DNA from: Raja brachyura
Lineage: Eukaryota
Direction: 5' to 3'
Length of the DNA: 64,000 nucleotides
NCBI GenBank assembly: GCA_963514005.1
Contig: OY740783.1
Span: forward strand, 13,578,001 to 13,642,000
Positions 50,401 to 51,130 of the stretch are shown here, piece by piece. Positions within the stretch are counted from its first letter, which is position 1; every line of letters starts with the position of its first letter. Position numbers and translations under genes: made by a program. The notes beneath the pieces were generated by a model that had not been told where the DNA came from, made no database searches, and saw only the letters and a program-made list of their open reading frames with translations.

Positions 50401-51113
50401 AGCTTATTTCAGTGTCTTGTGATCCAGTTGATGGGGGTGGAAGGAAGGGTGCATGTGAGCCTTGAATGGCTAAACTCTCATGGGCAAGTTGGCCTGACAC
50501 TGATATTTCAGTGAATCATTTTCCCAAGAGAGTCGGAGTCAGTCCGTCCAACTAATCATGGTGGGCTTCCTATGTTTTTACCAGAAACTGCTTGGCCAGT
50601 AGCATTAACGGCATTCACAAAAAATATCTGCACAATAAACCCTCCAGAGTATAAGAATGAGTGTATACTGGAAGATCAAATGAAAAAGAAAACTCAATTT
50701 ATTTAGGTACTTTGTATTCAGATATTGTCAGCCTATTCTGTAACTTGTTAAATGTGCACAAAAGCTTTATAAGTGTATTATTTTGATCTAATTTCCATAC
50801 AGAAATCCTACTATACATCTGGTATAGTTAAATTAATTGCATCTACATTTTGGACGTGCAGTTCCTTTTCTCTCAAAAGATGAGTGAAGGTGTGGGTTGA
50901 GAGAGAGAGATGTGTTTAAAAATGCTTTATTTCCACAGCATGATCTGCAGATGAACATTAATGCTTTCGCCCCCATTCATTTGTTAAGCAGCGCTGGAAA
51001 TATGAAATTAATGGTGCCTATTAGAAAAATGATATATGGTCCTAACAGACAATCTTACTAACATTGCCTTTCTTATTCTTTTGCTGGCAAAAGCTTGTCT
51101 TTGTGTTTTCCAG

Positions 51114-51130
51114 CGCTACTACAATGACAG
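51114..51130 (+). other. Candidate 17-nt poison microexon in the AP3B1 intron between the 98-nt and 139-nt exons
   Basis: TACTAAC branch point at 51056-51062; pyrimidine tract and ttttccag acceptor; exon CGCTACTACAATGACAG; CAG|gtgagt donor. After the phase-1 upstream exon it reads GCG CTA CTA CAA TGA. Confidence 0.6.

Follow-up and report, generated by a model that had tools for sequence, protein, structure and literature searches.

A 37-nt frameshifting AP3B1 exon shared by cartilaginous fish and human, and a predicted intronic arm that may pair across it in a skate

The AP3B1 locus and its 37-nt cassette exon

The window analysed here, a stretch of 64,000 nucleotides of Raja brachyura DNA, contains four exons (25285-25515, 27055-27138, 47354-47451 and 62699-62837) that match skate AP3B1 at 96-100%, which identifies the host as a skate gene for the ubiquitous beta subunit of AP-3. 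The paralogue, AP3B2, is found on contig C41 of the same genome, and the last coding exon of AP3B1 lies at G000:C3:13665213, about 23 kb past the end of the window. All of the features described below are on the + strand and are given in window coordinates. The cassette exon and hairpin of interest lie inside a 15-kb intron, between a 98-nt exon (47354..47451), which is 100% identical to skate AP3B1 residues 950-983 and ends in phase 1 after ...KEQ, and a 139-nt exon (62699..62837); in mouse, the exons flanking the Ap3b1 cassette are likewise 98 nt and 139 nt long (PMC13078869). The intron also holds dispersed repeat copies in both orientations (49288-49576, 57133-57522 and 59484-59842), including an inverted pair of 257 nt and 95% identity, 10 kb apart and flanking the exon, which could form long dsRNA around it.

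The cassette exon is 37 nt in length (51094..51130), and its boundaries were derived from protein isoforms. Among 232 stored AP3B1-family proteins (211 + 21, of which 12 lack the anchor motif, and including the best 120 of 393 matches from a search aimed at the alternative tail itself), 24 proteins from 17 species carry a homologous segment right after KEQ/TEQ. These species comprise three cartilaginous fish, two turtles, five birds, one marsupial and six placentals, human among them. Because the segments match the window from 51093 (translation ACLCVFQRYYNDR; catshark counterpart ACLCAFHYFCNDS), the exon is fixed at 51094-51130 and its entry at the AG at 51092..51093, the first AG past the branch point and the position at which the orthologous isoforms start. 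We are close to certain that this is the orthologue of the human AP3B1 exon HsaEX0004942. The exon is ancient, has a 3n+1 length, occurs in sharks, rays and human alike, and is already listed for human as an SRRM4 target; what is new here is that, judged from translated matches, it can be traced to cartilaginous fish.

A sequence-only reading of this DNA had instead placed the 3' splice site at tttccag/cgct, with a 17-nt microexon entered at an inner AG (51112..51113). This AG follows a T-rich run (pyrimidine fraction 0.75), is unchanged in four close relatives and would yield an in-frame TGA. However, it is the second AG past the branch point, it forms part of a Gln codon in the exon interior in skate, and the corresponding codon is His or Tyr in 16 of 17 other species, which consequently cannot have the inner AG, since neither His nor Tyr codons can end in AG. 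A 17-nt form of the exon occurs in 0 of the 232 AP3B1-family proteins, and the inner AG is not a conserved acceptor. At 37 nt, moreover, the exon exceeds the 3-27 nt definition of a microexon.

A consensus branch point, TACTAAC (51056..51062), places the branch A at 51061, 32 nt upstream of the exon, and is followed by a polypyrimidine tract (51069..51085) with CU-rich motifs that we take to be of the PTBP type and to be recognised by PTBP. Overlapping the last base of the 5' splice site, CAG/GTGAGT (exon/intron; 51128..51136), a TGCATG (51136..51141), presumably acting as an RBFOX-type motif, is mutated in one of four relatives. Within the tract, a UGC (TGC 51082-84) lies 12 nt before the exon, and so within the distance of approximately 15 nt from the 3' splice site that is expected of SRRM3/4-dependent exons; it is unchanged among the listed differences of the four relatives, and a UGC near the 3' splice site is an SRRM3/4-type position (PMC12871342).

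Published data on the mammalian orthologues point to neural regulation. The human exon (VastDB HsaEX0004942; 37 nt, chr5:78019467-78019503) rises from a PSI of 0.285 to 79.9 on SRRM4 expression in HEK293 cells, has a PSI of 15.5 in d50 neurons and 0 in progenitors, averages a PSI of 0.11 across nine non-neural tissues, and is among the 131 exons common to six SRRM4-induced lines (PMC7935315). In the same source, AP3B2 is up at least 2-fold in all six SRRM4 lines, and AP3B1 mRNA falls to 0.49x in HCT116 with wild-type compared with mutant SRRM4, this being the only AP3B1 entry in its 2-fold expression table (PMC7935315). During neuronal differentiation Ap3b1 departs from the course taken by Ap3b2 and the other AP-3 genes (PMC5316641), and the mouse cassette is brain-regulated, gains 0.19 PSI on Ptbp1/2 knockdown and carries PTBP CLIP peaks (PMC13078869). 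There is no Ap3b1 row in the supplement files searched of PMC11188260 (file 13 excluded) or in PMC10123112. Although public tables list the exon as a strong SRRM4 target, searches of the non-subscription literature (AP3B1 with microexon, poison exon, SRRM4, NMD or ADAR) found no paper that discusses it, nor its depth of conservation or the paralogue-switch reading set out below.

Inclusion of the exon in skate shifts the reading frame of the downstream exon to a stop, TGA 62718-20, 117 nt before the donor of 62699-62837, with another coding exon further downstream. A stop that precedes the final junction by over 50-55 nt directs a message to nonsense-mediated decay (NMD), and NMD is therefore predicted for the included form, the premature stop in the window being that of a poison exon by this rule. 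The frameshifted continuation into the next exon is seen in 14 of the 24 segment-bearing proteins, the remainder running into different exons. One such exon is present in the window at 55521..55578 (start to stop codon), the translation of which matches the tail of Narcine AP3B1 isoform X2 and which is followed by an AATAAA at 55652; on this evidence it may serve as an alternative last exon, in which case the included form would escape NMD and encode a beta3A without its C-terminal ear subdomain. Decay is also not universal, as the mouse cassette in the same intron (39 nt, chr13:94543983-94544022) is flagged as ORF-preserving and non-NMD, with a dPSI of -0.106 in the Upf2 cKO (PMC13078869). 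The difference between 39 nt in mouse and 37 nt in human, birds, turtles and sharks possibly reflects a lineage-specific loss of the poison effect. For the skate exon, a neural role that lowers AP3B1 output is probable.

Searches for related elements elsewhere gave little. By blastn the AP3B2 paralogous intron does not resemble the AP3B1 element, metagenome contigs gave 0 matches to a degenerate pattern of the amniote exon, a search of these contigs with the AP3B1 C-terminus returned no host contig, and no Rfam family scored above its gathering score in 50500-51700 (one chance match, E = 1). The same intron of AP3B2 does hold a candidate 19-nt frameshifting exon (L006 3311-3329, in G000:C41) with a pyrimidine tract, UGC, AG and GTAAG donor, for which the duplex is unremarkable (-21.6), and a tandem array with a unit of about 45 nt (L005 1600-1880) lies just downstream of the AP3B2 exon donor.

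A predicted hairpin across the exon and its donor

The complementarity on which the sequence-only reading was founded is present: the 11 nt of 50990-51000 are exactly reverse-complementary to 51107-51117, and both the inward extension by wobble pairs and the A51118:C50989 mismatch recur in the predicted structure. In each of the seven spans folded, the core pairs reach probabilities of at least 0.95. The 5' arm (50974..51005) comprises an outer helix (50974-86), the core (50987-51000) and the wobble extension (51001-05), and the exon is itself the 3' arm. The outer register proposed earlier (tcatttgt with acaa-tga) forms only in an RNA that ends at 51130 and is absent in full context, where 50974-50986 pairs instead with 51125-51137 in a helix of 13 bp, including wobbles. 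This outer helix covers the CAG/GTGAGT donor, which is predicted to pair with 50975-50983, as well as the first two bases of TGCATG.

Inside the long stem, the fold contains a side hairpin in the multiloop (51016..51040), mostly lost in two of the four relatives, and an inner helix, the 5' strand of which (51047..51056) pairs with 51091-51100, including the true acceptor AG. TACTAAC was said to be looped out; at 51056-62 it is indeed mostly unpaired, as a bulge, but the loop itself is structured by the inner helix and by a further helix of 5 bp (51064-68/51086-90), leaving the pyrimidine tract with its UGC as the apical loop.

Of 409 GC-matched control targets, 2 attain the duplex energy of -35.8 kcal/mol; among unmatched tiles 58 of 1590 do so (itself included), and among alternative partner tiles for the same target none of 396. 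Stable complementarity is thus above chance in this genome, although marginally so in the relatives (13-26 of 409). Compared with shuffled sequences, the fold gives z values of -2.73 and -3.18; this is not exceptional, since 5 of 79 tiles from the same intron (20 shuffles each) have z <= -2.73, and the global fold z was accordingly rejected as evidence by itself.

It had been claimed that a poison exon is present with an upstream arm that can pair across it, and both elements hold; the boundaries do not, as the exon is one of 37 nt from AG 51092-93 and not a 17-nt microexon. What the arm would mask changes with them. The exon body would be covered as proposed, but the second masked element would be the donor rather than the true acceptor. 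In silico, the opening cost of the donor is 10.9 kcal/mol with the arm, a value reached by 4 of 99 matched donor-like sites, versus 4.3 kcal/mol without it, the donors of the flanking exons costing 3.7 and 3.2 kcal/mol; for the true acceptor, the cost is 4.0 kcal/mol with the arm versus 3.6 kcal/mol without it. In all versions folded, opening costs 1.9 kcal/mol for the branch point and 0.1 kcal/mol for the pyrimidine tract.

The proposal that ADAR editing opens the stem drew on the A:C mismatch within this long duplex. When G, standing in for inosine, replaces A at 51118, the fold gains 6.7 kcal/mol in stability (from -53.7 to -60.4), and opening by ADAR is thus unsupported; nor does the same substitution at 51112, 51118 or 51127 lower the opening cost of either splice site, the simulated edits either stabilising the stem or having no effect on it.

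The hairpin in related species

The element was compared with DNA contigs of four related organisms (D, E, F and G, 4 of the 21 runs listed), D and G being nearly alike, at approximately 97.5% identity over 50600-51500. The difference list gives 40 substitution sites with positions, in addition to which there are four further substitutions and three indels without a position.

These comparisons bear on the strongest alternative to a functional hairpin, according to which the exon is a genuine poison exon regulated by SRRM3/4, PTBP and RBFOX while the hairpin is incidental, a moderate chance complementarity made into a perfect 11-mer by two transitions in this lineage, beside flanks conserved for protein-binding motifs. 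In keeping with this, the core is broken in all four relatives, where G51115>A disrupts the C50992-G pair; T51117>C breaks another core pair in F, A50975>T shortens the outer helix in E, and C51114>T, in three of the four, retains a wobble. The long stem thus has no compensatory, one wobble-retaining and three pair-breaking sites, in a comparison of four relatives too close, at this identity, to have power; tallies of each kind of change rule out hidden compensation at 50990 and 50992. As far as the five lineages compared go, the perfect 11-mer is peculiar to this one. With the listed differences applied in silico, the duplexes of the relatives have energies of -27.9, -26.4 and -26.3 kcal/mol, reached by 13, 24 and 26 of the 409 controls (3-6%), and their folds have z values of -1.3, +0.5 and -0.6. 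An incidental hairpin would also agree with the equally good folding of other tiles in the intron, and with the probing of 13 neural microexons, for which the available part of the source describes structure that tracks sequence identity and is not in general maintained by covariation (PMC12871342).

Other features argue against an incidental hairpin. The donor helix of 13 bp is retained in the relatives (p >= 0.9 in D/G and F, approximately 0.6 in E), and the inner helix is unaltered by any listed change. A boundary in conservation lies near the 5' end of the arm: substitution sites number 27 in 371 upstream versus 13 in 466 for the block that begins with the arm (Fisher p = 0.003, rising to 0.028 should the four unlisted changes all lie in this block), for a boundary that was picked after seeing the data. 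On the other side of the balance, the arm (50974-51006) has 1 of its 33 sites listed as substituted and is not significantly conserved on its own (p = 0.30), and nowhere in the conserved block is variation higher than in the exon (4 of 37). Separately, the downstream intron (51131-51500) is conserved in the four relatives as much as the arm or more, with three sites in 51201-51439; a tile at 51272 folds with a z of -3.2, and this segment may hold a further regulatory element.

Beyond skates, the arm was paired with exons back-translated from protein by parsimony, a procedure that is biased by its choice of the most skate-like codons and takes the arm to be unchanged. The resulting energies are -34.3 kcal/mol for Narcine, -29.6 for Stegostoma and -26.0 for catshark, versus -17.6 +/- 3.3 for shuffled exons. 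The strong pairing of Narcine and sharks arises because GCAG in the arm meets Phe-Cys codons where skates have the A:C mismatch, and, as deduced from protein, this GCAG would pair perfectly in each of the three chondrichthyans other than skate, which hints at a pairing older than skates. Amniote exons behave differently, their 3' halves being incompatible with the skate arm: the back-translations give -13.5 to -17, no better than shuffles, and a hairpin in human would therefore need a co-evolved arm. Taken with its evidence on both sides, an incidental hairpin is a serious if somewhat doubtful reading.

A possible structural gate on inclusion

The reading that we favour, on which our confidence is evenly divided, is that in an exon shared by cartilaginous fish and human the body and 5' splice site are predicted to base-pair with an arm in the intron approximately 100-160 nt upstream, probably damping inclusion until neuronal splicing factors act. 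To the exon boundaries, the frameshift with its premature stop and the complementarity, which the analysis establishes, we add by inference the steps of repression and release. The structure would mask the exon body and 5' splice site, whereas the UGC, the pyrimidine tract and the branch point would stay accessible. Outside neurons, skipping in skate cells would be maintained jointly by PTBP, bound to the accessible CU-rich loop, and by the arm, which lies over a strong donor. In neurons, the balance would be tipped towards inclusion by SRRM3/4, acting at the accessible UGC, and by RBFOX, acting at the TGCATG where it overlaps the helix end. The included message would then be decayed, or would end in the alternative last exon, with the result that ubiquitous beta3A is lowered while neuronal beta3B (AP3B2) rises.

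The hairpin itself is a real prediction, whereas its role as a gate is unproven, and that it functionally restrains the donor is a possibility we would place a shade below an even chance. Rather unlikely is the broadest form of this reading, in which a structure-gated poison exon would be at least as old as the cartilaginous fish, and possibly the jawed vertebrates, with SRRM3/4 switching the AP-3 coat between paralogues, ubiquitous AP3B1 down and neuronal AP3B2 up, and with a co-evolving arm that hides the donor and displays the branch point, tract and UGC.

The same open elements could be read in the opposite sense, the structure promoting inclusion by presenting the branch point bulge and the loop of pyrimidine tract and UGC single-stranded to SF1, U2AF and SRRM4. 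The low opening costs of both elements fit this, as does the accessible region from branch point to 3' splice site that is a feature of neural microexons (PMC12871342); however, the donor is buried in this fold, at a cost of 10.9 kcal/mol, and the AG is paired, and a promoting structure is improbable. A 17-nt microexon entered through AG 51112-13, with an acceptor that stays inaccessible until the stem is opened by ADAR editing or a protein, is contradicted by the isoforms, the His/Tyr codons and the simulated edits, and is very improbable indeed.

The presence of a 3n+1 exon in sharks, rays and human suggests that the mechanism by which neurons would shift AP-3 from the lysosomal form (beta3A) to the synaptic-vesicle form (beta3B) is an old one. 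If functional, the gate we favour would be a compact case of a strong donor staying silent outside neurons. For splice-switching of the HPS2 gene, AP3B1, the human exon would offer a candidate handle.

Among known systems, the closest is human HsaEX0004942, an orthologue with the same gene, intron position, length and frame effect and a homologous encoded segment, from which the skate exon differs in its diverged 3' half and for which no RNA structure is described in the literature searched. The MAPT hairpin at exon 10 is short and local, and is formed with the downstream intron. As in that 5' splice-site hairpin, the stem predicted in skate hides a donor from the spliceosome (PMC12871342). 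In contrast to MAPT, the skate partner lies approximately 150 nt upstream, on the far side of the acceptor and branch point. BRD2 exon 3b and BRD3 exon 5b are poison exons under the control of paired, conserved complementary regions (PMC10789245), and the inclusion of the skate exon may likewise be set by intramolecular pairing; in BRD2 the complementary pair lies in the flanking introns and both BRD cases are validated by mutagenesis (PMC10789245), whereas in skate one arm is the exon with its donor, and the pairing is a prediction only. With SRRM3/4-dependent neural exons, finally, the skate exon shares the UGC, long pyrimidine tract, strong donor and conserved flanks, together with SRRM4 induction in human (PMC7935315, PMC12871342), but it differs from SRRM3/4 microexons in its length (37 nt versus a limit of 27 nt; PMC7935315, PMC12871342), in shifting rather than preserving the frame, and in the predicted pairing of its AG, exon and donor.
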